From IMG/VR virus record IMGVR_UViG_3300045995_000065, positions 8,237-72,236 of that record: a DNA stretch of 64,000 nucleotides, one strand, 5' to 3'. The DNA comes from a virus. Below are positions 1 to 17,979 of the stretch, in pieces. Position 1 is the first letter of the stretch. Every line of letters begins with the position of its first letter. The notes beneath the pieces are model-generated. The model saw only the letters and a program-made list of their open reading frames with translations. It did not search any database and was not told where the DNA came from. The position numbers were made by a program, and so were the translations under genes.

Positions 1-407
1 GATGCCAGCGCACCAATTCGGTTTAAGTAATGCATTTTTCCAGTTAAGAACAATGCTTTGTCAGCATTGCGATTCCACTCAGTGTCTGGTGGGTTAGACA
101 ACACCTTGACAAACATTGCCCAGTAACTAATATAAACGATGTCTATACCTTCCCACAGGTGCGAAAATTGCTTGTACTGATCGTCAGCGATGACTGTTAG
201 TTTCTTGTTTTTATTTTTGGCCAATTCACGTATGCATGTGAGTGTTTCTATTACCTCTGGGGTACCAGGAAAGAACTCGTAAATTAAAAAAGCTATAACA
301 TGGTCTGCCTCACTGTTGGAGTCAAACCATGCTTCTAGCTCAATGCTTAATAGTTTTGGGTGGGCGAAACACATAAAAGAATGTAATTCCAGCAATGACG
401 TTATCAT
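1..407 (-). CDS. Hypothetical protein, partial (runs off the left edge); possibly related to the 5709..6857 family
   Basis: Manual translation from ATG 407 (MITSLLELHSF...KALFLTGKMHYLNRIG) is open to position 1; TAAATA lies 4 nt upstream; absent from the ORF track. Confidence 0.6.
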   Translation of the reverse strand, partial: MITSLLELHSFMCFAHPKLLSIELEAWFDSNSEADHVIAFLIYEFFPGTPEVIETLTCIRELAKNKNKKLTVIADDQYKQFSHLWEGIDIVYISYWAMFVKVLSNPPDTEWNRNADKALFLTGKMHYLNRIGALA

Positions 408-437
408 GCTGTATTTATTTTCGCCACTATACCCGTA

Positions 438-683
438 TTATTTTGCAGTCTTAAAATACTTAGCAAAGTCTTGGTTCACAAACTTTTGCGATGCTGTCAC
501 GGTTTCGGAATACAAAGACGTACCAACATCAGTGAAAGCCTTTACAGCTTCCTTAGTGTAAGTTGCTTGCGTGTCGACAAACTTGTTCATTGCCTTTGCA
601 GCCGCTTCATTCTTGACGAATGTAGTAACGAATTGCTTCTTGGACTTAACGACGGAATTGATGAAATCTTCTGGTGTAAACAT
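438..683 (-). CDS. Phasin-like (PHA granule-associated) small helical protein
   Basis: 81 aa amphipathic Ala/Lys/Thr-rich helix (MFTPEDFINSVVKSKKQFV...QATYTKEAVKAF); SD AAGGAG before ATG 683; PhaR-type palindrome upstream. Confidence 0.55.
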   Translation of the reverse strand: MFTPEDFINSVVKSKKQFVTTFVKNEAAAKAMNKFVDTQATYTKEAVKAFTDVGTSLYSETVTASQKFVNQDFAKYFKTAK

Positions 684-712
684 AATATTCTCCTTAGACG
701 AATGTTTAATAC

Positions 713-742
713 TATGCAGCCCACGGAATGTAGCACTGCACA
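713..742 (-). promoter_or_regulatory. 5'-leader hairpin with bulged G, shared with hsp20 leader
   Basis: Minus strand UGUGCAGU-G-CUAC-AUUCC-GUGG-GCUGCAUA directly after TAAATA (746-751). Confidence 0.6.
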
Positions 743-757
743 AAGTATTTATGTATT

Positions 758-774
758 ATGCTGCATTGCAGCAT
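758..774. promoter_or_regulatory. Perfect palindrome ATGCTGCA-T-TGCAGCAT, PhaR-type operator
   Basis: 17-bp inverted repeat containing CTGC-N3-GCAG, just upstream of the phasin-like gene promoter. Confidence 0.6.
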
Positions 775-842
775 TTTTAGCAAGTATTCTGGCTAAATTG
801 CTTTGCGCTAAATACTTGCTACATCATTTAAGGAGAATATAG

Positions 843-1109
843 ATGTTTAAGAAAATTATTGACGCTACAGTTGCGTTTTTCAAAGGACCACAAATTGCGC
901 CAGTTGTTCCTGAAGCACCTTACAAATTGGAGGCACCAGTTGTTGTAGAAACTCCTATGGTAAATCCAGTACCCGAAGTAGCACCAGTGGTTGAGGCAGT
1001 TAAAAAGCCACGCAAGCCAAGAGCACCTAAAGTCGAAGTTAAACCAGTCGCAAAAAAGCCAGCTGCTAAAAAAGCGCCGGCTAAGAAAACTACTAAGCCT
1101 AAAGCTTAA
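843..1109 (+). CDS. Small Pro/Val-rich protein with histone H1-like Lys/Ala/Pro tail
   Basis: C-terminus KPVAKKPAAKKAPAKKTTKPKA; SD AAGGAG; TAAATA at 809-814. Confidence 0.65.
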   Translation: MFKKIIDATVAFFKGPQIAPVVPEAPYKLEAPVVVETPMVNPVPEVAPVVEAVKKPRKPRAPKVEVKPVAKKPAAKKAPAKKTTKPKA

Positions 1110-2062
1110 TCTAGTATCCCAAAGTTTGCCCAATTAGCGGCACCCAGACAAACCCAACCCATTGGTCCGCCCAAGGTTGGGTTTGTGTTGAATACAATGT
1201 GACCTTTTGTGCTGGTGTATGATGGCGGCTGATTTGCCGCACTCAGCTTAACACTGCCTATACGCAAGTCGGATATTTCAGTTGTGCCATCAGTATTCAA
1301 TGTGATGTTATGTTTGTTGTTGGAAGATAATACCACAGCTTGTGCACGTGGTGTACCAATCTTAGCAACGCCCTCTTTATCCTTAGACACAGTGACTTCT
1401 ACTTCTTGATCCCAAATACTGAGTGCAGCAGATGGCTCTAAAGTATTGATGCCCACTCGTTTCTTCGTTACGTACAGTGTATTGGCAAGCACTGATTCTC
1501 CGTCTACTTGTAATTCACGCAACGCTCCTACTTTTTGCAAAAAGCTTTCGGTAATATCAAAGCCAAGCATCTTGCCTTCAATTACCGTAACACCATCAAT
1601 AGTAATCTTCTTTAAGTCGATTCCGTCTGCTTTGATAGTGTCGGTTACTTTTTGCGTGAAGCCTGCAAACATGTCAGCTTCCAATGATGCTTGAACATTA
1701 GCAGTAACCGTTGATGACAATTGTTTGTAAAACACAGAATCTTCTGGTACCGGGCCTTCAACAATGAACTTGCCCTTGACAGTTAAGTCCTTGGTAAGCA
1801 AATTGTTTTCCACGACGGTAACATCGTCCATCAGTGTAAGTACGCATTCAGATGCACGATCGTCTATACCAGTAGAAGAGAAGTTAGCAATGATGCCGCC
1901 TTGAATCTGCTCGCCAGTAATCGTGATCTCGCGCTGTCTAACCGCTACAGCAGGAATGCTTGCAGTTGGATATTTTTCGCGCTTAAGGAGTTTTGCTGTA
2001 ACAAAATCCTCGATGTATTGTTTAATCTCGTCTGTCAGTTCTGTTTGTGTTGAATCGGTCAT
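1106..2062 (-). CDS. Putative virion structural protein (beta-rich, fibre-like)
   Basis: VGINTLEPSAALSI segment and C-terminal GWVCL..W..FG, as seen in phage fibre proteins. Confidence 0.45.
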   Translation of the reverse strand: MTDSTQTELTDEIKQYIEDFVTAKLLKREKYPTASIPAVAVRQREITITGEQIQGGIIANFSSTGIDDRASECVLTLMDDVTVVENNLLTKDLTVKGKFIVEGPVPEDSVFYKQLSSTVTANVQASLEADMFAGFTQKVTDTIKADGIDLKKITIDGVTVIEGKMLGFDITESFLQKVGALRELQVDGESVLANTLYVTKKRVGINTLEPSAALSIWDQEVEVTVSKDKEGVAKIGTPRAQAVVLSSNNKHNITLNTDGTTEISDLRIGSVKLSAANQPPSYTSTKGHIVFNTNPTLGGPMGWVCLGAANWANFGILD

Positions 2063-2798
2063 AGGTCTCGTCGAATTTAATGCTAACTACGTGTTCGTAA
2101 TTCTTCTTGATAGGGCTCTTGTACATCAAATTCTTGTGTACAATGAAGTCGTCTGCGCCTGCGTCCATACTAAACTTTGCTAACTGTTTGAAGTACATTG
2201 TGTGGCGTTTGAATGAGCCATACACTGTCAACGAATCAGTCGCATTGTTAATCTCGTATACTTTGGATTCCCATTGTGTACGACTTGTTGTCGTCCAATT
2301 ATGGAACTCATTGAATACCAAACTGTCTGCACCGTTACGGATAACTGCTGGTGTCGAAAACTCTCTATCTTTGAAATCTTGATTTTTGTAATCGCGTAAT
2401 GTACTTATCACAAATTCTTTAGCCAAAGAACAAATCTTGCTCACTTTGTCAATTTGAGTTTGTGAATTGGTGGCATAGGTGAAATACTCATCAGCAGCCA
2501 CGACGACATCATAAGACTTTTCAATCGCAGCCAATTGTATGTAGGTGTACTTGACTTTTTTCTCGTCTAAATAAGCACGGGCAGCATCACTTATCTCAGT
2601 GACGAATATTTCCTGCTTTACATTACTGCTAATAATTGCTGGATTAAATCCGCAAAAAAGCACAGTACCAGGAATGAAATTGTAGTAGTCATAAACACCG
2701 TCTAGTATAGCTTGTTTTTTAAGTATGATCTCGGCTGCTTTGCTCGAAGCCTTTAATGCGGATAAGTTAGCGTCAGTATAGTTTGTAAAATCAGTCAT
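2022..2798 (-). CDS. Hypothetical protein, possible degenerate methyltransferase-like fold
   Basis: 258-aa ORF; 'TVLFCG', 'YDVVVAADEYFTY'; TAAATA upstream at 2824-2829. Confidence 0.4.
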   Translation of the reverse strand: MTDFTNYTDANLSALKASSKAAEIILKKQAILDGVYDYYNFIPGTVLFCGFNPAIISSNVKQEIFVTEISDAARAYLDEKKVKYTYIQLAAIEKSYDVVVAADEYFTYATNSQTQIDKVSKICSLAKEFVISTLRDYKNQDFKDREFSTPAVIRNGADSLVFNEFHNWTTTSRTQWESKVYEINNATDSLTVYGSFKRHTMYFKQLAKFSMDAGADDFIVHKNLMYKSPIKKNYEHVVSIKFDETYDRFNTNRTDRRD

Positions 2799-2826
2799 GC
2801 CATTATTGTAATAGTTGTGTAACTAT

Positions 2827-3744
2827 TTATGGCGAGCGCACTAAATCTAACGTAACGCAATGGAAGCCACCGCCCAACGTGCGTGAATGACGCAATTCAA
2901 GGGGAATAGATTCAATTTTGTACTTCTTTAGTGTTTGCATTAACGATGATTGTTTTTTATCTACTATTACCAAATTAGGATTGACCACTAGCATGTTCAT
3001 GGCAATCCATTTGCTTGCGTAAGGATACTCGTAAAATTGTTGCGGGACTACATCAGAATGTGACACCCAAATCTTTTCCCAATTTTCAAAAGCCTTAGGA
3101 ACAGTTGTTGGATGCACACGGGATGCATTGAGCATTACGAGACCTTCACGTAGCGGCACTATAGTAGAGTCAATATGTACGCCGCTGTAAAAGTTACAAG
3201 TTTCTATTGTAACATGGGGGAGGATGCTTTGCAACCAGTCAGCAGCCGCTTTGTTGCCACTTGCGCTTTCCAGCACGACATAGGTGTCATTTAGTCTGCA
3301 TACGTTAGCAGCATCAAGAACCATACCTTTGTTGCGCGGCATTTCGTAAACTACGCCACGCTTAGTGACATCTTTGAGTGCTCTGGTTTCCATGTCCCTG
3401 CATGGATACATCATTACTGGGTCAATGATCTTTGTGCCCGCAATGAGCAGCCTGTCTCGCGGACAGTAATTGTACATACCACCTTCATAACCAAAGTCCA
3501 TTTCTGCGGGACGCAGGACTTCTACGCCAAGGTTGCGAAGTGTGGTTGAGAGGGTTTCTAAGTCCTCGTTTGATTCGTCAACAACGTGCTTAGGTACACG
3601 ACCAGACGGAACAGGAGTTTCGTGCCAGGTTGTTTTATATTTTTCTTCAGCAAAGACTGGATCTTTGGTGGGCCAATGTGCGTGGGTGGCATCACCTACT
3701 ACGCAAACTTTAAGAGGGTCCCATTCGTTGTGTGAGTGTATCAT
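2827..3744 (-). CDS. Amidinotransferase (glycine/inosamine-phosphate amidinotransferase family)
   Basis: N-terminal EWDPLK..VVG, CPRD, DAAN, HIDST and C-terminal GGGFHCVT catalytic Cys motif. Confidence 0.9.
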   Translation of the reverse strand: MIHSHNEWDPLKVCVVGDATHAHWPTKDPVFAEEKYKTTWHETPVPSGRVPKHVVDESNEDLETLSTTLRNLGVEVLRPAEMDFGYEGGMYNYCPRDRLLIAGTKIIDPVMMYPCRDMETRALKDVTKRGVVYEMPRNKGMVLDAANVCRLNDTYVVLESASGNKAAADWLQSILPHVTIETCNFYSGVHIDSTIVPLREGLVMLNASRVHPTTVPKAFENWEKIWVSHSDVVPQQFYEYPYASKWIAMNMLVVNPNLVIVDKKQSSLMQTLKKYKIESIPLELRHSRTLGGGFHCVTLDLVRSP

Positions 3745-3986
3745 TCGTATTTCAACTTTGCCCAGAGGCGGTGAGTTTCGTTTGGTATATGGAAGCTTGC
3801 ACAGTTTCCCTTTTCGTCGGTCCAGTGGTTAAAGAACTCTGCTTGCACTTTTTGCATTTCGCACCAATGGTGAAATTCATCAAACCATGCTGTAATGCCA
3901 TCACGATCGCAGTTCATTTTAGCCACTATTATTTCGTGAGTGGGAACATTTAGTCGAAGCTCAAATGGCGTTAATGTCATCGCCAA
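3741..3986 (-). CDS. Small hypothetical protein (W-C...F..E...LK[YW] family)
   Basis: Overlapping start/stop with both neighbours; shared C-terminal pattern. Confidence 0.55.
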   Translation of the reverse strand: MAMTLTPFELRLNVPTHEIIVAKMNCDRDGITAWFDEFHHWCEMQKVQAEFFNHWTDEKGNCASFHIPNETHRLWAKLKYE

Positions 3987-4495
3987 CCTGTAATTTGCAG
4001 TGTGTAGCGATCTTCTTCGCCTAAGTTAGCCGCAGCATGTGGTGTGTCGTATTCCCACCACGCAGTTTGTCCAGCTTTCCAATCAACGATTGGTTTGCCA
4101 TTTACTTCGGAGTAATGACCGCTTTTCCAATCTTCTAGGAATACCACGGCACGATTGATTCTGTGTTCGGCTCCAGCGAGACTATGTAGTTGAATATATT
4201 TGACATATAGATCAGAGTGATTTGGCATGACGGTGCCAGTGGCCATACGGTAATAAGAAGTCCCAACATTTTTCCATCCCATTGCTTCAAAGATTTTAAT
4301 AAACTTTTTGTTCCAACTTGGCTGCTCTGAGCGCATATCGCACATAGCACCTGTGATTTTGTCGCTGTAACCCATTGCGAGCCACCTGCGTACACTCTCC
4401 TGGTCGTTAAACGGCTCGTGTATGTAATCTAAAGATTTAAATTCGTCGTCCCAAAATTTTGGGAGCATGAATTTATTTGATACGTGTGTTGCCAT
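3977..4495 (-). CDS. 2OG-Fe(II) oxygenase
   Basis: HxD (NHSD), distal H (PHAAAN) and R (RYTLQITG) of the double-stranded beta-helix dioxygenases. Confidence 0.75.
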   Translation of the reverse strand: MATHVSNKFMLPKFWDDEFKSLDYIHEPFNDQESVRRWLAMGYSDKITGAMCDMRSEQPSWNKKFIKIFEAMGWKNVGTSYYRMATGTVMPNHSDLYVKYIQLHSLAGAEHRINRAVVFLEDWKSGHYSEVNGKPIVDWKAGQTAWWEYDTPHAAANLGEEDRYTLQITGWR

Positions 4496-5708
4496 AATGG
4501 ATCACCTTAATGTTTTTGTTTGTGGATGTATAAGTACGCCACGGATCAACCACAATGCTTCCGTCGTGTATGTCACAGTAGACACCTTGCTTTTGTCCAC
4601 CTGCGTAACCGTAAGTTACGTTGGCATTATGCGCCAATAAAACTACACCAACTACTGGCTCAGTAGCGATATCGTTTGTTAACGGATCAACATAGAATGG
4701 CTTTGTGCCTGTTAACTGCTCTATGTAATGTCCTACTAGCAAGCTATACGACCCATCAGTGTACGACACGTTAGGCTTGTATGCTTTGCCGTGTATGAAG
4801 ATAGGCAAGTCATTGAATGCTGCTTTTTTAACCAGGAACAAAGCAAGGTTCTCTGCTTGAATTTCTCTGGCATGCATAATTGCGTCAAAGAGATCGTAAC
4901 CTAAATTCAACTGCTCTGCTAAATGCCTTAGTGCAATGTTGTCACGTGGGTGGCAGGGCCCGGCATCTCCCATCCCTGCGGTCATGTACTTGGGACCCAT
5001 TATCCGCATCGTACTTTTTGCGAGCGCTGTGGTAACTACATCTACATTAATGTTACCTTGTTTGATGGCCACATCTTGAATCATGTTGGCTAAACCAATC
5101 TTCGCGCTTATATAAGTGTTGTAGAACACCTTAATGCACTCTGCTTCGTCCCACGTTCCAACCTCGTAGCGAGGATCGTTTTGCATGATGGGCTTATAGA
5201 AGTCAATAAGCGTCTTAGCATCACCAGTCAACGATCCATCCTCTGTTCCTATGATGACCATTTCTGGATTAACCATATCCCACGCAACTGATCCCATTGC
5301 GATTAGGTATGGATTGTAAATAAACTTTGCATTATAAATGAGTGGTTGCAACTCACGGCGAACTGTACCTGGTAGCACAGTGGAAATGAGCACTACTAAC
5401 TGATGCGACAGTGCAACTTTGTTGATTTCGAATAAAACATCTTTAACTGTCGCGTAATCAAAGTCTTTGTTTGGTAAATGGGCAATTGGTGCTGAGCCAT
5501 CGTAAGCAGGATCGTGCGGCGTTTGCACTGCGACAAAAATGATATCTTGCCCCAAAACGGCTTTGTGCAGTTTGTTAACGATATTAATCTTGTCACTTGT
5601 CTTGGGGTAAATATCGTAACCAGTAACATTATAGTGCTCGCCCATTGCTTCTGCACATGGCATGCCTAACTTACCAATTCCAATAAACCCTACATTTTTG
5701 ATTTCCAT
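4473..5708 (-). CDS. UDP-glucose/GDP-mannose dehydrogenase family protein
   Basis: GFIGIGKLG Rossmann motif, AVQTP, STVLPGT, KVFYN, AGPCHPRD catalytic Cys, GKAYKPN. Confidence 0.9.
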   Translation of the reverse strand: MEIKNVGFIGIGKLGMPCAEAMGEHYNVTGYDIYPKTSDKINIVNKLHKAVLGQDIIFVAVQTPHDPAYDGSAPIAHLPNKDFDYATVKDVLFEINKVALSHQLVVLISTVLPGTVRRELQPLIYNAKFIYNPYLIAMGSVAWDMVNPEMVIIGTEDGSLTGDAKTLIDFYKPIMQNDPRYEVGTWDEAECIKVFYNTYISAKIGLANMIQDVAIKQGNINVDVVTTALAKSTMRIMGPKYMTAGMGDAGPCHPRDNIALRHLAEQLNLGYDLFDAIMHAREIQAENLALFLVKKAAFNDLPIFIHGKAYKPNVSYTDGSYSLLVGHYIEQLTGTKPFYVDPLTNDIATEPVVGVVLLAHNANVTYGYAGGQKQGVYCDIHDGSIVVDPWRTYTSTNKNIKVIHYGNTRIK

Positions 5709-6857
5709 ATGATTCCTGTTGATAACTTTTATAATGTATTGTACGCTAATCTATTTAACAAGTCTATGGACCCTCGGTTCATATATTTCCTAAATTTTAC
5801 TACCAATGTTACCACATCAGATTTATTTTTGTCGTGGACTCCGATGCCCAGCGTAAACGTGTTGTCTAAAAATGACATAACTTTGTTTTACGACCAAGAA
5901 CCAATTTTCTTAGAATCAACCAAGCAAGTGTTGAATTTAGTAATGACTCTGGATGAATGGCAAGAGCATTCTGGAAATATGATCCTGGGAAATTCGGAAT
6001 ATTCCGACGTAAAAACTAAACTGTGCGCTGAGCATAACTTCAATGATTGGTATTACTTTTACCATGGATTTGCAGCACTAGATTGGTACCGGGATTACAA
6101 ATATTTCCCTAAGAGCAAATTTAAATTTGATAAAGTATTTATGTCTCTTAATCATTTGATGACAACTGACAGATCATATCGCTTAACTTTGGTTGCCAAC
6201 TACATGCAAGAAGGATTAATGGGCAAGGGCATAGTAAGTTTGCCGTTACGTGACAAGAATAGAACAATCAATGAAGAGCTATTTTCGCAGGACTCAAAGC
6301 TGTCCAAAGCAGCAAAGCGATTAGTGTTTGAATACCTTTCCCCGCTAACACAACCATTTATCGCTGATACTGAATACCCAGATGGTTATATGAGCGCAGC
6401 TACAGATTTTGATTTCCAACGCACAGCATTTTGGCATGTAGTAGCAGAGACTGTGTTCTACCACAAGAAGCTGCATTTGACTGAGAAGATATTCAAGCCT
6501 ATTATTGCTCGCCGTCCGTTCCTGTTAGTAGCAGCGCCAGGTAACCTAGCATACTTAAAGAGCTATGGGTTCAAAACGTTCTATAAATGGGTAGACGAAT
6601 CGTACGACAACGAGCAAGATGATGACAAGCGCATTGCTATGGTCGTCGCACAGCTAAAGAAGTTGTGCGCAATGAACAAGGACGACTTGTATGAGATGCA
6701 GCAAGAGATGGACGACATACTGGACTACAACTTCAATCACTTCTACGGCAATTTTAAGCAGATTATTGTTACTGAAATGCTTGATAACTTCAAGAAACTA
6801 CCTATTAACCACGGAGACATTAACTTCACAGAAGTATACGATCGCCTAATGCGCTAA
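5709..6857 (+). CDS. Conserved phage protein, glycosyltransferase-like C-terminus
   Basis: VVAETVFY..LTEKIFKPI..RPFLLV..G.L..LKSYGFKTF motif; head-to-head with the sugar dehydrogenase. Confidence 0.5.
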   Translation: MIPVDNFYNVLYANLFNKSMDPRFIYFLNFTTNVTTSDLFLSWTPMPSVNVLSKNDITLFYDQEPIFLESTKQVLNLVMTLDEWQEHSGNMILGNSEYSDVKTKLCAEHNFNDWYYFYHGFAALDWYRDYKYFPKSKFKFDKVFMSLNHLMTTDRSYRLTLVANYMQEGLMGKGIVSLPLRDKNRTINEELFSQDSKLSKAAKRLVFEYLSPLTQPFIADTEYPDGYMSAATDFDFQRTAFWHVVAETVFYHKKLHLTEKIFKPIIARRPFLLVAAPGNLAYLKSYGFKTFYKWVDESYDNEQDDDKRIAMVVAQLKKLCAMNKDDLYEMQQEMDDILDYNFNHFYGNFKQIIVTEMLDNFKKLPINHGDINFTEVYDRLMR

Positions 6858-6864
6858 ATACTGT

Positions 6865-7779
6865 ATGAAAATAAATGAGATCATCTGCGAAGACGTGTCA
6901 CAAGGCGACTTTGCTCAAATAGAGCGATTTGCTGATGCGCTATGGGGCAGGCTTGGCATTGACGTAAAATTTACTTGGCACTTCATGCAACGTGTAAACG
7001 ATGTGCGCAACGGTAAGCCTATCACCACGGCTGAGCTTATTCGTATGTTCAAGAAGGAATATATGAAGTACGGCAAAGATGTGTCTAGCATGGACAACTC
7101 AGTAGAAGCAGTCTTCAAAGATGCGATGACTGCTATCAACTTGCCATTCGTTATCAAAGACACCCCGCAAGGTAAAGAGCTTATCGCCAAGACTACGATG
7201 CGTAAGCCTAACTTTAAGACTCGTCCCGGCCAACCAACGTATGTCATTGACGATGTTAACTTGCCTAAAGATCAGTGGGAGACATTGATCTCTACTGCTG
7301 ACAAAGAGGAGGTTGGTGACAACCTTGTGCAGTTAGTGCAGCAAGCATATAACGCTACACCTGAAGGTAGCTTTGTAAACAGTATGAAAGACGTCATCCC
7401 GTCTGACTGGGAAGTAATTGACTGGGACGGCGACCAAAGTATCAATGCCACAGTATTCTTCCGCAAGCCACGTGGCAATGAAAACTGGCAAGGCTATAAG
7501 ATACAAGGGTTGGGTCACGATGGCCAACGTGCGTCTAAGGATCGCGCTATCAAGAAGATGATACAGATGCTTGAGACTCGTGGTTATTGGTTAGAAGGAT
7601 CAGACGCAATGCGGGCAGTGCTTAAACGTTACCAAGTCATTGCAGTGTCAAACGAGCAATTCCTGCAGCGTCTGTTCAATGACTCACAGCTACGCATGGT
7701 GAACCACGACACATACCAACGTAAACTAAGCAACCGTGTCATCACTGAATCTGTCTTTGGAAGGCCTATTCTGCGATGA
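6865..7779 (+). CDS. Two-domain putative internal virion protein (MKINEII leader; C-terminal GNAT-like domain)
   Basis: Leader MKINEIICE; TAAATA 4 nt upstream; second domain KIQGLGHDG...YWLEGS. Confidence 0.5.
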   Translation: MKINEIICEDVSQGDFAQIERFADALWGRLGIDVKFTWHFMQRVNDVRNGKPITTAELIRMFKKEYMKYGKDVSSMDNSVEAVFKDAMTAINLPFVIKDTPQGKELIAKTTMRKPNFKTRPGQPTYVIDDVNLPKDQWETLISTADKEEVGDNLVQLVQQAYNATPEGSFVNSMKDVIPSDWEVIDWDGDQSINATVFFRKPRGNENWQGYKIQGLGHDGQRASKDRAIKKMIQMLETRGYWLEGSDAMRAVLKRYQVIAVSNEQFLQRLFNDSQLRMVNHDTYQRKLSNRVITESVFGRPILR

Positions 7780-8606
7780 AGATAAACGAGATCATTACTG
7801 AATTGCGCAAAGCAAAACCTCGCGAACCAAAAGCAGGTGATACAACTCCGCACGATTACAATCCTGGGTGGGAGACACTAAACTACCTTAAAGAGCAAGC
7901 ATTCAAACAAGGTCAGCGTTTAGCTGAAAGCTATCAGTTATTCATGCCACGTAGAAACAATGGTGCGCAGCCAGCTCGTGATCGCAGGATGGCAAATATA
8001 GGAAACAAATGGGCCTGGGACGAAACTGATCCTACACAGCTTAAGCCGCAGTACGCAAGGTGGGAGCAGGGACAAAAGGATCTAAGTCCCAATGGTATGC
8101 AAGATGACGAAGTGACGGAAGCAGCACCAATACTAAAACCAGGTAAGGCAGAGTCTCCCCCTGGCAATAACAAACCACACGCTGACCTATGGACAAGCAC
8201 TGCTAAACGTGGTGGTGATGGCGCTTACACAAGTGATTGGGTACGCTATGTCAATGATGCAGGGCACGATTGGATGGCACCAAAAGGTTACCTATACAAA
8301 GTCAAACCTGGTGCATTGATACTAGAATTAAACAGCGACCACGATGCTGAACGTATCTATCAAGCATTTGAAAGTTTAGGCACAGCACAACCTATTGACT
8401 ACAGTAGTTCATACGGTAGATTAACAAAAGCATTTCCGTGGGATCAAGTTGTAAAACATTTTGATGGTGTGCGCCACGGGGGATACAATAGTCGTGACGA
8501 TTTTATATACGGTTGGGATTGTGAATCAACTGCATGGTTTAACACTAGCTTCTTAACATTGGTAGCGGAGGTTCCTATCTCCCGCTACAGGGAAGACGAA
8601 TACTAA
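7776..8606 (+). CDS. Putative internal virion protein; C-terminal ART-like domain
   Basis: Leader MKINEIITE; internal VTE/AAP junction; LWTS...FDGV...WDCES motifs. Confidence 0.45.
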   Translation: MKINEIITELRKAKPREPKAGDTTPHDYNPGWETLNYLKEQAFKQGQRLAESYQLFMPRRNNGAQPARDRRMANIGNKWAWDETDPTQLKPQYARWEQGQKDLSPNGMQDDEVTEAAPILKPGKAESPPGNNKPHADLWTSTAKRGGDGAYTSDWVRYVNDAGHDWMAPKGYLYKVKPGALILELNSDHDAERIYQAFESLGTAQPIDYSSSYGRLTKAFPWDQVVKHFDGVRHGGYNSRDDFIYGWDCESTAWFNTSFLTLVAEVPISRYREDEY

Positions 8607-8607
8607 A

Positions 8608-9537
8608 ATGAAGATAAACGAGATCTTAACAGAAGAAGAGGCGCCGATCCTTCCCAAGCGAGTAACTGACAAGGAGTTGGTTGCGCTATTGGGTAAGGGT
8701 AAGACCAATGCTATGCTTCGTCACCCTTGGTTCCAACGCTACTCCAACTATCAAAAGGCATACCGCTATGCAAAAGACAAATGGGGCTTTGTCACTGTTG
8801 ACATGTTCCCTTTCTTTGTAGAGCACAATAGAACTCCTGATGGCGGCATTCGTCCTACCATCTATGTGTCGTTCATCTTCTCTTACTCTGGTACCAAGGT
8901 AGTGCAAGCACATCAGTTTACACGCCCATTGGTGCCTGATGAGTTTGAATTGAATAACAAGATTACTGGTGGGTGGCAGCACGGCACGACTTGGAAGGTA
9001 GACAAAGTAAAAGAAGATACTTACCAACCACCAGAGCTACACACTGGTGACAAGATTCTCAAGGGCAAGTTTAAGAACAGTCCCGCCACGATTAAAGGCT
9101 TCTCTAAAGACAAACACAACCAGCCAGTGCTAAAGACTGACAAAGGTGCAGTGCAATTGTTCAAGCCCCGTGTCACGAAGTTGATGACAAACGAATCAGT
9201 GATGCCTGGTACTTACGTGCACGAAACATCTCCAGAGAAGGCTGCGCAAATTGCAAAGATGGGGTTCAAGCCATCGTACGAAGGCATCTTCTTTAACCGC
9301 GACGGTACAGGTTACTCGGGTGGTGGTTACGGTGGCGCATTGATAACAGTGCAGCTAAACATCACTAAGTTACTTGACATGGACGGTGACGCAGAAATGC
9401 CAGAGGACTTAGACGAGTTTGCTGATGGTGAAGAGATTGCCCAGTACGCACGTAGTCACGGTTACCAAGCTTGGGCTGATGACTTACAAATCGCTGTACT
9501 TGACCCACGTTGCATCAAAATCGTGAGCATTAAATGA
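8608..9537 (+). CDS. Three-domain putative internal virion protein; C-terminal ADP-ribosyltransferase-like domain
   Basis: Leader MKINEILTEE; C-terminal HETS...I...GF...GIFF...YG...GY...QIAVLDP..IKI pattern. Confidence 0.5.
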   Translation: MKINEILTEEEAPILPKRVTDKELVALLGKGKTNAMLRHPWFQRYSNYQKAYRYAKDKWGFVTVDMFPFFVEHNRTPDGGIRPTIYVSFIFSYSGTKVVQAHQFTRPLVPDEFELNNKITGGWQHGTTWKVDKVKEDTYQPPELHTGDKILKGKFKNSPATIKGFSKDKHNQPVLKTDKGAVQLFKPRVTKLMTNESVMPGTYVHETSPEKAAQIAKMGFKPSYEGIFFNRDGTGYSGGGYGGALITVQLNITKLLDMDGDAEMPEDLDEFADGEEIAQYARSHGYQAWADDLQIAVLDPRCIKIVSIK

Positions 9538-10403
9538 ACCTGTACGACTTATTTGAAGGCGCGACAGACGTCTTGTATCACTATACCGGTATTCGCCCGG
9601 CTCTTAAAGTTTTGCAAAGTGGAATGTTTGAGCTAAGTCGTTCTACAGGTAATAAGTCTGAAGAGAACTATGCACCAGCAGGTTACGATTACTTCTTCTC
9701 CACTACACGCTCCAAGACTGGCGACTACCATCGCATGGTTGGCAATGGTGCAGTTATGTTCGTCTTAGACGGGCAGTGGTTTGGCCAACGTTACAAAGTA
9801 AAGCCTATTGATTATTGGGATCGCTCTTGGTTGCAAACTCACGACCGGACTCGCGAAGCTGAAGATAGGGTATTCTCTAAAACACCTGCAATTCCAATTG
9901 GCGGAGTCCGTGCTATACATGCATTTATCAATGAGCATAACGAGTGGCGCTCTCCTGAGTTACGCACTATGCTATTGCAGGCTAAGAAACTTGGGTTGCC
10001 CATTTTTATGTATAATAATGAAGAGGCGTGGCGCTTGCAAGATACACGCAAGGCATTGACAGTGCAACAGATGGCACCATTGCTTAAGGGTGTTATGCCA
10101 GTGGCACACCAGTACAGACCAAGTACAGACTACATTAAGCCATGGCTGGAATTGATCCATAAGAAGAGCAAAGCAGACTTAAGCCCAGAAGGTGAAAAGT
10201 TGCGCTATAACTTGGTATACTACGGATCACGTTACGAGAACGAAGATAGCGGATTGGGCAATGCATTGGCTAACGAGCGTAAGCCAGGTAACACTGGGTA
10301 TGACTCTGCAACCAAGCTGATACAAGCGATGCGCCAATCTAAGTTAAACTCACCACTTGCACTGAAAAATGCGTTGTGCCAGAAGTGGGAAAATATTAAA
10401 TGA
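9534..10403 (+). CDS. ADP-ribosyltransferase-fold putative internal virion protein
   Basis: Leader MNLYDLFE; LYHYT, FSTTRS and EAEDR motifs (H / S-T-S-like / ExE). Confidence 0.5.
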   Translation: MNLYDLFEGATDVLYHYTGIRPALKVLQSGMFELSRSTGNKSEENYAPAGYDYFFSTTRSKTGDYHRMVGNGAVMFVLDGQWFGQRYKVKPIDYWDRSWLQTHDRTREAEDRVFSKTPAIPIGGVRAIHAFINEHNEWRSPELRTMLLQAKKLGLPIFMYNNEEAWRLQDTRKALTVQQMAPLLKGVMPVAHQYRPSTDYIKPWLELIHKKSKADLSPEGEKLRYNLVYYGSRYENEDSGLGNALANERKPGNTGYDSATKLIQAMRQSKLNSPLALKNALCQKWENIK

Positions 10404-11143
10404 TCACAATAGAACCCTACTTAGAGTTCTACATCACCAACGTTTGTAACTTAGCTTGTAAGGGCTGTAATAGATTCAACAATTACAAGTTTAAAGGACA
10501 TCAAACGTGGGCAGACCACGAGGCAGAGTATGCTAAGTGGTCTAAACGTATAACTGCTCCCTTCATTACTATCATTGGGGGCGAGCCTACATTGAATCCC
10601 GACTTGGAAAACTTTGCTGCTGGTATACGTAAGCTATGGCCCGATAGCGAGGTGATGATTCAGACCAATGGCACGTATCAACGCCCACGGCATATCAAAT
10701 TTTGGAAGAATTACAAAGTGGGATACGGTGTGTCATTGCATGACCCAGCTACTGCTGATGACATTAAGAAAACATGGAAGGACCATGGTGGGACATTTGA
10801 CGCTTACGACTTTCATCAAGCAGCATTGATAGAGGATGGTGATAAGTTTTTACTTCATGACAGCGTACCGATTACTGCATTTGAGTTTTGCGATATGAAG
10901 CACGATCGCACGATGTTTAACGGAAAGCTATTCAAGTGCCCGTCAATGGCAACGATACCCGAGTTTAGAAAACAGTTTGATGTTGTGCTGTCACAGGATG
11001 ATGAGACACTACTAACCTCTTACCAACCACTAAGTGCAGATTGCACTGAAGAAGAATTGCAGACATTTTTTATGGACAGGGATAAACCTATTCTGCAATG
11101 TAAGTTTTGCCCGCAAAACTTAGTGTGGGCTAAAGCTCTTTAA
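10400..11143 (+). CDS. Radical SAM protein
   Basis: CNLACKGC (CxxxCxxC), GGEP, TNG; C-terminal Cys set (C..C..CKFC). Confidence 0.9.
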   Translation: MITIEPYLEFYITNVCNLACKGCNRFNNYKFKGHQTWADHEAEYAKWSKRITAPFITIIGGEPTLNPDLENFAAGIRKLWPDSEVMIQTNGTYQRPRHIKFWKNYKVGYGVSLHDPATADDIKKTWKDHGGTFDAYDFHQAALIEDGDKFLLHDSVPITAFEFCDMKHDRTMFNGKLFKCPSMATIPEFRKQFDVVLSQDDETLLTSYQPLSADCTEEELQTFFMDRDKPILQCKFCPQNLVWAKAL

Positions 11144-12851: not shown

Positions 12852-13168
12852 TCTTCTTCCAAAAGTTCTTCGAGTTCAGGCTTCGTAACAAACTTACCAC
12901 CAAGATCAGGGAACCATGTTGTATGGTACTCCTTGCCACCTAGCTTGTAATAGTCTGTCATTGAGTGCTGGTTGTTTGTTGATTTGAACGGGTCGATCAT
13001 CTTGAGCAAAAGCATAATGTCTGTGTACTCTTGCCCTTCAATCTTGCGCATAGGAGGACCCATTACACTGCGCAAAAACGCTTTGGCCTTAGCCGGGTCA
13101 TCGCGCATTTCTTTACGGTGTCTCGCGAGACCTTCTTTGAGTAGAGTTAACTCGCTCTTTTTAGACAT
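12848..13168 (-). CDS. Hypothetical protein
   Basis: Likely start MSKKSEL overlapping the clpS stop. Confidence 0.55.
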   Translation of the reverse strand: MSKKSELTLLKEGLARHRKEMRDDPAKAKAFLRSVMGPPMRKIEGQEYTDIMLLLKMIDPFKSTNNQHSMTDYYKLGGKEYHTTWFPDLGGKFVTKPELEELLEED

Positions 13169-13478
13169 CAGCTTCAAGCTTGATAGCGAGAGGGAAACCG
13201 TTGTTACGTGCAAGCAATGTTACTTCCACGCCTTTTTGTTCTGCCAATTCGTATGGCAATGTTGCGGCAACTGCGGCGCCGTCTTCATGCACCTTTGTCA
13301 TAATGTGCTCTGCCGTAACATCATCGTGGCCAAATACTGCCTTCAATGTTTCAATAACGAACTCCATTGTGGTCACATTGTCATTGACATAAATGACATT
13401 GAACAATGGTGGCGGTTGCACATCAGTGCGAGGTTGAATACGAACTTGATTTTGGATTTTGGTTGATGTAGAGGACAT
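13161..13478 (-). CDS. clpS: ATP-dependent Clp protease adaptor ClpS
   Basis: VIYVNDNVTTMEFVI...VHEDGAA...AEQK...FPL: full ClpS signature. Confidence 0.93.
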   Translation of the reverse strand: MSSTSTKIQNQVRIQPRTDVQPPPLFNVIYVNDNVTTMEFVIETLKAVFGHDDVTAEHIMTKVHEDGAAVAATLPYELAEQKGVEVTLLARNNGFPLAIKLEADV

Positions 13479-13493
13479 ATTTGAATCTTAAAT

Positions 13494-13514
13494 GGGGAGG
13501 AAAAGTCCCTCCCC
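13494..13514 (-). terminator. Hairpin after hsp20
   Basis: GGGGAGG/CCTCCCC stem; weak U tract. Confidence 0.5.
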
Positions 13515-13532
13515 TTGTTGCATTATAGCGTT

Positions 13533-13982
13533 TTACTTGTTAAAAGTCAACGCGATTTTGCGTGGCTTCTTCTCTTCTGGTACTACGAGTTCCAGAGCAA
13601 TAGCCAAAATGCCATTTGTGACATTAGCGCCACGAATTTCTACGTGTTCCGAAAGATTGAACACACGTTCGAAATTACGAGTGGAAATGCCTTTGTGAGC
13701 ATAAGTAAGTTTTTCCTTATCCTCTGTGGCCTTTTTGCCGCTTACGTGCAAAGTGCCGTCCTTCAATTCTACGTCGAGTTCGTGCTCACCAAAACCAGCG
13801 ACTGCAACTTCAATAACTGTGTTCGTCTCATCGATGTTTACAATGTTGTATGGTGGGTAGTTCTCGTTCGACTTGGCGGAATTGGCGAATGTACGATTTA
13901 GCTCATTGAACATTCGGTCAAAGCCGATAGCTGTACGATGAATTTCAGGTAGGTTAAGGGTGTGAATAGAAAAGTTTGTCAT
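13533..13982 (-). CDS. Small heat-shock protein Hsp20/IbpA
   Basis: IGFDRMF, YPPYNI, AVAGF, HKGISTRNFER.F.L, NGIL, VPEEKKPRKI. Confidence 0.95.
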   Translation of the reverse strand: MTNFSIHTLNLPEIHRTAIGFDRMFNELNRTFANSAKSNENYPPYNIVNIDETNTVIEVAVAGFGEHELDVELKDGTLHVSGKKATEDKEKLTYAHKGISTRNFERVFNLSEHVEIRGANVTNGILAIALELVVPEEKKPRKIALTFNK

Positions 13983-14014
13983 GTTGTTCTCCTGTTAAGC
14001 AAGTATGACTTTAA

Positions 14015-14042
14015 ATGCAGCCCGATTATTCGGCACTGCACA
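14015..14042 (-). promoter_or_regulatory. hsp20 5'-leader hairpin with bulged G
   Basis: GUGCAGU-G-CCGA-AUAA-UCGG-GCUGCAU right after TAAATA (14045-14050). Confidence 0.6.
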
Positions 14043-14086
14043 AATATTTATTTTACACTCTTTTGCATTATATGCAACTATTATGG

Positions 14087-14311
14087 CTATTTTACTACTG
14101 TAAACTTTTCAGTAAGTTTTGGTGGGTTCATAATGAAGAACGACAAATCTACAGGATTCGAAAAATGGTAATTAAGCTCGTAACCAGCAAGGTCAACTTC
14201 AAATTTGATTTCGTAATACGTTAGCCATGTAAGCATTTCACTTAGTACCATCATGCGCTTTGCCTTCCGCATTGACCCGTTTGGAATAATGAATTGAATA
14301 TAGTCCATCAA
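14087..14311 (-). CDS. Small hypothetical protein
   Basis: Coupled to the clpX stop. Confidence 0.5.
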   Translation of the reverse strand: MMDYIQFIIPNGSMRKAKRMMVLSEMLTWLTYYEIKFEVDLAGYELNYHFSNPVDLSFFIMNPPKLTEKFTVVK

Positions 14312-15498
14312 TGTGCATCGCGTACAGTTTGTTCCGTGATCTCTAAGGCAGCGATTCCTTGCGCTTTCATCTCAGTTAAAGCGTACATATAGGGCATTAA
14401 CGTGCGTTCCAGGATGCTTTTCAGCCCTCTTGCGCCCGTGCCCTGCTCGTGTGCTAACTCTGCACAAGCTTGTATTGCACCGTCTGTGAATTTTAATTCT
14501 ACGTCGTCAGACTCAAAGTAGAACTTCATCTGTGCGAGTAAGTTGTTGCTTGGTTCCTTAAGAACACGAACAAAGTCTTCTACTGTTAGCGCATCAATTG
14601 GTACTGCAATAGGGAAACGACCAGTGAACTCTGGGATCATACCAAACTTGATAAAGTCATCAGGAATGAATGCAGCCGTGTTTACTTTGGTCGCAGTGTT
14701 ACCAAATCCAATAGCAGAACCTTTTTGTCTACGTTCCACGATCTTGTCAAGGTCAGAAAATGCGCCGCCCGCAATGAATAAGATCTTGCTTGTGTCAATC
14801 TCAACCTGATCCATGGCAGGATGCTTCTTACTGCCGCCCACGCTTACTTTGCATATAGTGCCTTCTACCAATTTTAGTAATGCTTGCTGGACACCTTCGC
14901 CAGACACATCACGGGAGATACTTGCGCTCTCAGACTTCCTGCCAATCTTATCAACTTCGTCTAAGAAGACGATTCCGTGTTGGCATCGTTCTACATCATT
15001 ATCTGCTGCACTTAGTAGGCTGCTAACGACACTTTCAACATCGTCGCCCACATACCCTGCTTCAGTTAGTGTAGTCGCATCTGCTACGACGAAAGGAACA
15101 TTGAGGTAACGTGCGATTGTCTTAGCAAGCAATGTTTTGCCTGAACCTGTTGGCCCAAAGATAAGGATGTTAGACTTCTCTAACTCAACAGGGGACTCGA
15201 AGTAAATGCGCTTATAGTGATTCACCACGCCCACAGCGATAGCAATCTTTGCTGCATCCTGTCCGATAACGTACTGGTCAAGATAGGCTTTGATCTTCAT
15301 CGGATCTAAAGCCTTCGTGATCTTTTTATCTTTGCGTAGAGCATCGTTGTGCTCTTTGTTTAGTATGCTTGCACATAGTTCAATGCACTCGTTACAAATT
15401 CCCGCATCATTTGCGACAATAAGTTTGTCAACGTCTGAGCGGGACTTCCCGCAGAAGTTACAGTGAACTAATGGTGTCAGTGACAGATTTGAGTTCAT
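14308..15498 (-). CDS. clpX: ATP-dependent Clp protease ATP-binding subunit ClpX
   Basis: N-terminal C4 zinc finger, GPTGSGKT, TEAGYVG, DEVDK, RDVSGEGVQQALLK, IGF loop, GARGL. Confidence 0.96.
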   Translation of the reverse strand: MNSNLSLTPLVHCNFCGKSRSDVDKLIVANDAGICNECIELCASILNKEHNDALRKDKKITKALDPMKIKAYLDQYVIGQDAAKIAIAVGVVNHYKRIYFESPVELEKSNILIFGPTGSGKTLLAKTIARYLNVPFVVADATTLTEAGYVGDDVESVVSSLLSAADNDVERCQHGIVFLDEVDKIGRKSESASISRDVSGEGVQQALLKLVEGTICKVSVGGSKKHPAMDQVEIDTSKILFIAGGAFSDLDKIVERRQKGSAIGFGNTATKVNTAAFIPDDFIKFGMIPEFTGRFPIAVPIDALTVEDFVRVLKEPSNNLLAQMKFYFESDDVELKFTDGAIQACAELAHEQGTGARGLKSILERTLMPYMYALTEMKAQGIAALEITEQTVRDAH

Positions 15499-17793: not shown

Positions 17794-17979
17794 TTATTTC
17801 CAGGGACGACCTGGGTTTAATGGAGTAGGACGGGGAGGATCTACCTGCGGATTGTCAATAGTGTGCAGTGCACGATAACCCACGGTTCCGGTTGCTGCTC
17901 GTTTTGCTTGAGCAGCGGCAAGTTTAGCGGCTACACGAGCCGCTTTTGTTGGTAATGTAGAGATGCCGTTTTGCGCCAT
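17794..17979 (-). CDS. Small basic protein, possibly virion-associated
   Basis: MAQNGISTL...GRPWK; TAAATA 4 nt upstream. Confidence 0.55.
   Translation of the reverse strand: MAQNGISTLPTKAARVAAKLAAAQAKRAATGTVGYRALHTIDNPQVDPPRPTPLNPGRPWK

Follow-up and report, generated by a model that had tools for sequence, protein, structure and literature searches.

A phasin-like protein family of phages with a PhaR-type dyad in its promoter and a ROSE-like leader

The window analysed here is a stretch of 64,000 nucleotides (64 kb) that forms part of a 72-kb IMG/VR virus record, for which CheckV estimates a completeness of 20%. Its GC content is 42-47%, and it encodes a ribonucleotide reductase, a DnaB-like helicase, a UvsW-like helicase and ClpX, as well as collagen/Mtd_N and beta-helix fibre proteins. 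ClpX forms a cluster with sHSP and ClpS at 13161-15498. No match to bases 1-6000 was found by megablast in 50,697 cultured phage records. Near-identical DNA is present in ten DNA runs, these are riverine, wetland, pond and freshwater-sediment metagenomes, and no RNA run is listed as carrying bases 1-3000. Contigs from four sequencing runs show no differences from the window, their cover of it being incomplete. As a clue to the host, ClpX offers matches of just 45-58%, in assorted MAGs, and the OMP-like protein of a relative, the complete 338-kb phage genome G001, has a match in one of 401 Pseudomonadota genomes. The features discussed below are as follows.

438..683, minus strand: phasin-like gene, an open reading frame with an ATG start that encodes 81 amino acids plus the stop codon
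681..749, minus strand: 5' UTR, a ROSE-like leader with two predicted hairpins that runs up to the start codon (covariance model R1, 55.2 bits, E 2.5e-11; included in the training alignment)
690..695, minus strand: Shine-Dalgarno (SD) sequence AAGGAG, 6 nt upstream of the ATG, with AGGAG invariant or nearly so in alignments A5 and A6
712..743, minus strand: hairpin I of the leader in the MFE fold, with an outer stem, a UG/G internal loop and an inner stem of 4 bp
726-746: site B, a weaker PhaR-like site whose core TGCAGTGCT has one mismatch; it lies 30 nt from site A and overlaps the 5' arm of hairpin I
746-751, minus strand: TAAATA box, a phage-type promoter-like element
755..783, minus strand: sigma-70-like promoter TTGCTA-17-CATAAT, from a consensus scan (9 of 12 positions match), with no mapped start
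756-776: site A, a PhaR-type operator in the promoter spacer that overlaps the -10 hexamer, identified as a dyad and without binding data
758-774: perfect 8-1-8 palindrome ATGCTGCATTGCAGCAT, which ends 6 nt before the TAAATA box on the gene strand
843..1109, plus strand: divergent neighbour encoding an 88-aa Lys/Ala/Pro-rich protein
13161..13478: ClpS gene (ClpS by Pfam), the next gene after the sHSP gene
13533..13982, minus strand: sHSP gene (HSP20 by Pfam)
13980..14049, minus strand: second copy of the leader, 5' of the phage sHSP gene (R1, 51.7 bits; included in the training alignment)

The phasin-like gene and its divergent neighbour are separated by 160 nt, and the intergenic region with its operator is common to both genes. 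The neighbour has a TAAATAC of its own at 809, and its protein has no Pfam family. Among 75 representative loci of the phasin-like family, homologues of this neighbour form a cluster of 12 members, the window copy included; they are the first upstream gene in ten cases and the second in two, always on the opposite strand. No conserved regulator gene was seen among the neighbours of the family gene in the 75 loci.

PHA serves environmental bacteria as a major store of carbon and energy, and its intracellular sensor is PhaR. The original prediction, made from the letters of the window alone, was that the phage expresses a phasin-like, granule-binding protein only when its host holds PHA, by way of a PhaR site upstream of the gene. 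The predicted protein belongs to a large, unnamed family found only in phages. An exhaustive profile search gave 434 representative clusters at E<=1e-3, and members from the best 150 of these are 56-161 aa in length. A word-indexed search returned four close relatives and a second indexed search 593 proteins; among the 120 listed of these 593 relatives, none has a Pfam domain or a meaningful name. The family had no match in cultured phages (tblastn with three members against 50,697 phage records), was not found in PHROGs, and a scan of 185,579 species genomes with alignment A2 identified no relative. As it was not found in the species genomes, direct evidence that it was captured from a host is lacking.

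The 81-aa protein itself has no phasin match in Pfam or NCBIfam, and no match to Phasin_2 (PF09361) even at E<=10. Phasin_2 is the sole Pfam family that recurs among 150 members of its family, being matched by ten of them at E<=0.01 (best E 1.2e-4), all other Pfam families are singletons, and the single weak matches include Perilipin and ApoLp-III. One relative scores 16.3 bits against Phasin_2, for which the curated HMM cut-off is 24.9 bits. Among the NCBIfam models, TIGR01841 is matched by four of the 150 members, TIGR01985 by two and phaP_Bmeg by one.

A set of bacterial phasins was assembled for comparison, it comprises 30 Phasin_2 genes from 201 sampled Pseudomonadota genomes, 99 of which had the family. 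Alignment with hhalign of the phage family profile to the 19 short phasins of 109-123 aa gave a probability of 80.5% and an E of 1.3e-5 over 55 columns, in which phage residues 14-68 correspond to positions 38-94 of the short phasins. The controls were far weaker, with E values of 0.074 for the reversed phasin alignment, 0.066 for the best of 30 column shuffles and 0.026 for the reversed family. Against all 30 bacterial phasins the similarity was weaker (E 7.4e-4, probability 25.7%), and comparisons with a single PhaP2 and with 56 Cupriavidus PhaP2 relatives gave nothing. The named clusters that lie closest in the protein atlas are Phasin_2 (0.88) and PHB_acc (0.86), a result which we treat only as a lead.

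The AF2 model of the protein consists of two helices (residues 4-22 and 26-78, pLDDT 73.9), this predicted fold is a generic helical hairpin. A Foldseek search of the model against the PDB found nothing at E<=0.001. In the VIA wide search the phasin PhaP (5ip0_A) ranked 24th with a Z of 6.7 and an rmsd of 1.6 over 69 residues, values in the range that is common for helical models. Searching the PDB by sequence profile produced just CD81, designed bundles and BAR domains, all at an E of at least 0.02. The open reading frame of the original prediction is real, and its likeness to a phasin is borne out by the profile comparison with short Phasin_2 phasins (E 1.3e-5, controls at least 0.026); the window protein itself lacks a Pfam match and the structure searches are uninformative. 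Judged by sequence comparison, the family appears to be a remote homologue of part of the phasin domain, a relationship that we consider real but remote.

The perfect palindrome that had been noted 6 bp upstream of the TAAATA element was confirmed at 758-774. The PhaR consensus invoked for it is also real in the literature: PMC6201568 prints it as TGCRNYGCASMA, PMC12542648 gives the motifs CTGCNNNGCAG and WNWDDNYGCRNYGCRNHHWNW, and PMC12849132 gives YTKNTGCRNYGCANMAR. TGCATTGCAGCA (762-773) fits TGCRNYGCASMA at 12 of 12 positions (PMC6201568). Site A also fits CTGCNNNGCAG and the 21-nt Sinorhizobium meliloti motif (PMC12542648), and it agrees with the R. eutropha 17-mer at 15 of 17 positions, both mismatches falling at the outermost ones (PMC12849132). 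Site A thus agrees with published PhaR motifs of four species. Site B contains the R. eutropha 17-mer with two mismatches at 728-744. The spacing of 30 nt between sites A and B falls within one class of bacterial spacings, that of 29-34 nt.

Within the window such a sequence is not rare. The palindrome pattern with up to three mismatches has one match where 0.60 are expected in 64 kb, which is not beyond chance. There are seven perfect palindromes with an arm of at least 8 and a loop of no more than 3, simulated sequences contain 4.4 and 13% of simulations reach seven. The core TGCRNYGCA occurs nine times (8.75 expected), and the R. eutropha 17-mer with up to two mismatches 18 times (14.2 expected). 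The significance of the palindrome rests therefore on its conservation across homologues and not on its rarity in the window.

Conservation was examined in 93 loci, which are the best 80 of 228 viral relatives, 12 earlier loci and the window. Loci on the same contigs or with identical upstream regions were left out (L002-L009, L011, L016, L026 and L032-L034), as was L025, which has just 76 nt upstream. The remaining loci, each represented by the 120 nt immediately 5' of the family gene, gave 75 distinct sequences. A perfect TGCRNYGCA is present in 38 of these 75 upstream regions. In the rest of the same loci the core occurs at 27 sites over 351,766 nt (0.0092 per 120 nt). The enrichment has a binomial P of about 1e-56, which is uncorrected for relatedness, and the counts are phylogenetically non-independent. 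The logo of 39 phage sites reads WTGTTGCRNYGCAACAT (W-T-G-T-T-G-C-R-N-Y-G-C-A-A-C-A-T), and the consensus dyad is ATGTTGC-N3-GCAACAT around the TGCRNYGCA core. This dyad is matched at 10 or more of its 14 fixed positions in 56 of the 75 regions. The form in the window, ATGCTGC-AAT-GCAGCAT, is one variant of the conserved element. Conservation of the palindrome upstream of homologues had been set beforehand as a check on the original prediction, which passed it with the 38 perfect cores. A first impression from 17 loci that the palindrome is not conserved in distant homologues was overturned by the 80 further loci.

The two arms of the dyad mostly do not vary together. The right-arm variants GCAGCAT, GCCGCAT and GCAAGGT are mostly found opposite an unchanged left arm ATGTTGC, and one asymmetric variant is seen facing either way with respect to the family gene; these uncompensated changes and the variant in both orientations fit the site of a dimeric protein and not a hairpin. 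The palindrome might otherwise be a nucleic-acid structure, whether a hairpin, an opposite-strand terminator or, for the divergent gene, a 5' element. On the plus strand TTTTT comes after it, the closest relative (L002) carries a change from CA/TG to CG/CG on both arms, and Rfam freshwater-2 aligns weakly over its full length, with 18.7 bits (gathering score 49.9) and an E of 0.74. On the plus strand freshwater-2 and the LcrF thermometer are, however, far below threshold, a loop would be just 1-3 nt, arm changes across loci are mostly uncompensated and no plus-strand gene ends at the palindrome. Sites identical to it also precede bacterial phasin genes, and we consider a structural role very improbable.

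In the bacterial comparison set, 26 of the 30 Phasin_2 genes carry a perfect core in the 200 nt that precede them, usually as a pair of sites, with flanks similar to those of the phage element; examples that resemble the phage flanks are ATGTTGCAGTGCAGCAT, ATGCTGCACTGCAACAT and ATGCTGCAATGCAATAT. A symmetrised weight matrix was built from 47 bacterial phasin-promoter sites alone. The top score of this matrix in the whole window is at 756-776 (20.6 bits), followed by 17858 (18.0 bits, apparently coding), 14026 (16.6 bits, in the sHSP leader) and, in fourth place, site B at 726 (13.2 bits). Because any match of this matrix has to contain the core, the test is in the main a ranking of the nine core sites of the window by their flanks. 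In 50 of 74 loci (mean 4.95 kb), the matrix has its best match no more than 150 nt 5' of the family gene. A site of at least 8 bits is present in 51 of the 75 phage upstream regions and absent by this matrix from the other 24. Two sites are found in seven of the 75 phage promoters, including that of the window, compared with 23 bacterial ones. Table 2 of PMC6201568 assigns the 12-mers TGCATTGCAACA and TGCACCGCAACA to PhaR-repressed genes, and both are present verbatim in phage sites.

The palindrome fills the spacer of the predicted TTGCTA-17-CATAAT promoter, and the TAAATA box is closely followed by site B. The TTG and the A/T positions of the -10 element are invariant in the 3-way alignment A3. 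The dyad of relatives coincides in part with a -35-like TTGC that stands 17 nt 5' of TACAAT or TATAAT; these elements were identified by reading and are consensus matches. The TAAATA box presumably resembles T4 late promoters; TAAATAC occurs 21 times in the window, 5 times on the plus strand and 16 times on the minus strand, and several copies lie just 5' of the starts of open reading frames. The dyad was also considered as a -35 or MotA-box-like element, and this was rejected on its symmetry and on the one variant found in both orientations. The CIRCE, HAIR and sigma-32 motifs did not fit by eye.

The PhaR DNA-binding domain (PF07879) is absent from four phage records, which are the record of the window, the complete G001 and two more. 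It is present in four of five arbitrary, unrelated bacterial genomes. Since the four phage records show no trace of this domain, the factor that binds the dyad is probably that of the host. A host factor is the simplest candidate, the host being unknown and binding data lacking.

Sites of this type are not confined to the phasin-like gene. In G001 the core stands beside TAAATA boxes at a DUF1127-like gene (two tandem sites), an OMP-like gene and a gene for a small coiled-coil membrane protein. In another relative, the 222,775-bp record L122, an isocitrate lyase gene (PF00463, E 1.4e-108) follows the strongest PhaR-type site (23.2 bits) at a distance of about 30 nt; this association is not general, as isocitrate lyase was found in one of five phage records searched.

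Such a distribution is also what might be expected if the dyad were the operator of a phage-encoded or other non-PhaR dimeric regulator with TGC-N3-GCA specificity, governing a phage-internal regulon with the DUF1127-like, OMP-like and small membrane protein genes of G001. That genome has the core beside TAAATA boxes at four promoters, the distance between dyad and TAWWTA is fixed at 3 nt in many loci, and the phage sites are usually single where the bacterial sites are paired. Broad regulons are, however, also reported for bacterial PhaR (PMC12542648 and PMC6201568). A regulator of the phage's own would have to be reconciled with the four records that lack a PhaR-type domain and with the absence of a conserved regulator neighbour. 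It would also leave two resemblances to be explained, as the flanks beyond the core are like those of bacterial phasin-promoter sites and the controlled gene is itself phasin-like. We regard a non-PhaR regulator as unlikely, and PhaR remains our preferred candidate.

The approximately 65 nt from the promoter to the start codon are also conserved across the family loci. This leader, which the gene has in common with the phage sHSP gene, is a second layer of control that the original prediction had missed; it is a layer in terms of structure, and its function is inferred. The outer stem of hairpin I varies and its loop is AUAGG-like; after the hairpin come ACUCGCUUAA and AAGGAG. Over 36 distinct rows, 95.8% of the cells of hairpin I are paired, compared with 80.4% in shuffled and 30-49% in slid controls, and compensatory changes are seen at eight of its ten pairs. 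Of 74 loci, 54 have the leader 5' of the family gene according to the covariance model R1, whose training set included 35 of these 54; the model has two other matches (L013:9-75 and L014:165-230). Outside the training set, R1 also finds the leader 5' of the sHSP-ClpS operon of G001 (46.6 bits, E 5e-9). At the 30 bacterial phasin loci no leader was found, save for one R1 match at an E of 0.18.

The short ROSE-like ibpA thermometers of Pseudomonas comprise two hairpins, the second of which contains the SD facing U(U/C)GCU (PMC3669281). In most rows of the phage alignment, and in the sHSP leader, the SD comes after UCGCU or UUGCU; the phasin-like leader of the window reads UUCGUC at this point. 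The SD helix is short and is only partly formed in MFE folds. Rfam ROSE_3 (RF02523), whose gathering score is 43, aligns over its full length to the sHSP leader of the window with 28 bits (E 1.8e-4), and to the leader of the family gene at six of 12 related loci with 25.8-31.1 bits, all of these being below the gathering score. For the phasin-like gene's own leader Rfam ROSE gave no match at E<=10, and there is no gathering-level ROSE_3 match anywhere in the window. As the layout resembles that of the ibpA thermometers but the scores are below 43, we describe the leader as ROSE-like and not as a member of ROSE_3. Because it is common to the phage's own sHSP gene, translation of the phasin-like gene is probably also tuned by temperature or stress; a temperature response is inferred here.

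Both the ROSE-like leader and its connection with the sHSP gene hint at a stress role for which no PHA would be needed, and they count against gating by PhaR. The protein could accordingly be a stress or proteostasis factor, such as a holdase helper or an inclusion-body coat, that acts with sHSP, ClpS and ClpX, its likeness to phasins being a matter of shared amphipathic helices only. The same leader is found 5' of the sHSP gene in two phages, the ClpX, sHSP and ClpS genes are clustered at 13161-15498, and both the generic fold and the single weak matches to Perilipin and ApoLp-III are compatible with helices of no specific kinship. Such a role would leave the conserved PhaR-type dyad unexplained, and the profile similarity to phasins survives the reversed and shuffled controls. 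The bacterial phasin loci lack the leader, which suggests that it is an addition made in phages and does not define the function of the protein. A chaperone-like action of phasins has been reported, which also fits a role in stress, and so has a link between phasins, heat tolerance and the presence of IbpA on PHA granules (PMC6201568 and PMC10646324); this link makes the pairing of a phasin-like gene with an sHSP gene less odd. A proteostasis factor without a tie to PHA has in our judgement only a small chance of being the right account.

On balance we favour the hypothesis that the host PHA sensor PhaR gates a phage homologue of the Phasin_2 phasins. This is a moderately probable inference from sequence data; neither PhaR binding nor granule binding has been shown, and the host is unknown. 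In a host without PHA, free PhaR would occupy the dyad and block RNA polymerase. In a PHA-loaded host, PhaR would be titrated onto the polymer and the phage gene would be transcribed. The start of the mRNA would then present the covarying hairpin followed by an anti-SD of the U(U/C)GCU type, which may tune translation by temperature or stress. The two-helix amphipathic product may coat granules or similar hydrophobic surfaces, and this coating could alter the granule surface, the distribution of PhaR or the mobilisation of PHA, to the benefit of the phage. As regards the circuit that was originally proposed, the phasin similarity and the conservation of the dyad support it, and neither of the computational outcomes that would have refuted it (no phasin similarity, no conservation of the palindrome) was met; what concerns PhaR binding and the host is inferred.

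A wider hypothesis is that freshwater T4-like large phages run a small PhaR regulon. The host PhaR would act as a gauge of carbon storage and the ROSE-like leader as a gauge of temperature or stress, and the response would be a granule-remodelling minimal phasin plus other cargo, namely isocitrate lyase in one relative. We put this forward only tentatively, and somewhat doubt it as it stands. Were it true, stored PHB would be a resource that is sensed and tapped during infection.

The phaP-PhaR circuit itself is already known. What appears to be new is its presence in phages, on an unnamed minimal phasin-like family and with a thermometer-like leader; among the titles and abstract openings seen in the literature, none described a phage phasin. 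If phages do put a granule-coat gene under PhaR, the outcome of infection would depend on the storage state of the host, and freshwater phage ecology would be tied to carbon storage. It would also be a clear case of a virus that uses a host transcription factor as a metabolic gauge, in addition to an RNA thermometer-like leader. The family is large (434 clusters) and unannotated, so an assigned function would annotate hundreds of phage genes. Minimal phasin-like proteins of 67-100 aa could, moreover, serve as small PHA-binding tags.

Three known systems are comparable to the phage locus. The ROSE-like element of Pseudomonas ibpA (ROSE_3, RF02523) is a comparable leader, likewise 5' of an sHSP gene and about 65 nt long, with the same GAUGCCG...CGGGUC signature in hairpin I; its two hairpins, with the SD facing U(U/C)GCU (PMC3669281), have a predicted and less firmly supported counterpart in the phage leader. 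The phage leader differs in that it also drives a phasin-like gene.

The bacterial phaP-PhaR circuit, in Cupriavidus necator, Paracoccus, Rhodobacter, Bradyrhizobium and Sinorhizobium, has the same TGCRNYGCA dyad with similar flanks over the promoter of a phasin-type gene. The window resembles it further in having two sites 30 nt apart, like one of the bacterial spacing classes, whereas most phage promoters have a single site. The proposed circuit is located in a phage genome, and no PhaR gene is present in the four phage records. The phage protein has 67-100 aa and is below Pfam thresholds, bacterial phasins have 109-188 aa. In phages a TAAATA-type promoter and the ROSE-like leader are added, the latter being absent at the 30 bacterial phasin loci.

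Cyanophage phosphate genes carry host Pho boxes, which places auxiliary genes of the phage under host regulators. The phage phasin-like gene would follow the same idea, as a host-metabolism gene that apparently reads the state of the host through the site of a host factor. The sensor would in this case be PhaR, and the cargo a granule-coat protein.

PhaR-like sites are also found at other phage genes. In G001, a complete 338-kb related phage, the TAAATA box of a DUF1127-like gene is flanked by PhaR-like cores, giving two tandem sites, and a PhaR-like core lies beside the TAAATA box of both an OMP-like 215-aa gene and a gene for a small coiled-coil membrane protein. An isocitrate lyase gene has the strongest PhaR-type site of its locus (23.2 bits) approximately 30 nt upstream and is separated from the phasin-like gene by 1.6 kb; isocitrate lyase was present in one of the five records searched.

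PhaR-like cores at TAAATA boxes and the isocitrate lyase gene
L035:570-615; L036:1975-2000; G001 19710, PhaR-like cores at the three G001 genes
L122:837-2167, isocitrate lyase gene (PF00463, E 1.4e-108) of a 222,775-bp phage record

Downstream of the phasin-like gene at another viral locus, at a distance of 1.1 kb, a PhaR-type site of 19.1 bits (L138:3603-3623) occurs approximately 30 nt before an 88-aa ORF that has no Pfam family. In the window, the second-best match of the weight matrix built from bacterial PhaR-type sites (17858-17878, ATAGTGTGCAGTGCACGATAA, 18.0 bits) looks to be within coding sequence.

In one subfamily (L010, L027, L025, L013, L014, L029 and L128-L136) the phasin-like ORF follows a short ORF starting MWPYT or MQPYT, or forms an in-frame fusion with it. 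Here a TATAAATA box is bracketed by two PhaR-like sites, 20 nt apart, and the ROSE-like leader is absent from these loci. Among bacterial phasin loci, the covariance model of the phage leader has a single match, L146:1825-1892 (-), immediately upstream of a phasin gene; at 16.3 bits (E 0.18) it is too weak to be interpretable. The Rfam model freshwater-2 aligns weakly over its full length to window 758-845 (+) (18.7 bits vs 49.9), with the palindrome in place of the first hairpin, which is probably a chance alignment.

The phage also carries a proteostasis cluster at window 13161-15498 (-). The sHSP-ClpS pair is found again, with the same leader, in G001 (L059:9113-9991).

Proteostasis genes of the window
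14308..15498 (-), ClpX
13533..13982 (-), Hsp20/IbpA-like sHSP
13161..13478 (-), ClpS

The GCTAAATAC motif recurs in the window a short distance upstream of ORF starts, and motifs of this type adjoin the gp23-like capsid gene of G001. It is probably the phage's own promoter class, which we assume to be T4-late-like.

Examples of the GCTAAATAC motif
Window 809, 6855, 17738, 17989, 38457, 40379, 42032

The gene block at window 2827-11143 encodes UDP-glucose/GDP-mannose dehydrogenase-like and radical SAM proteins, among others, and contains five ORFs of 276–382 aa without a Pfam family. Its role may be in modifying sugars or nucleotides.

Divergent from the phasin-like gene is a gene for a small protein.

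Divergent neighbour
Window 843-1109 (+), 88-aa protein with a Lys/Ala/Pro-rich tail

Across the 75 representative loci, the window copy and its homologues make up a neighbour cluster of 12 members, and 10 other loci encode a membrane-anchored protein whose tail is similar. We take the tail of the 88-aa protein to be reminiscent of the histone-H1-like tails that some granule-associated proteins carry.
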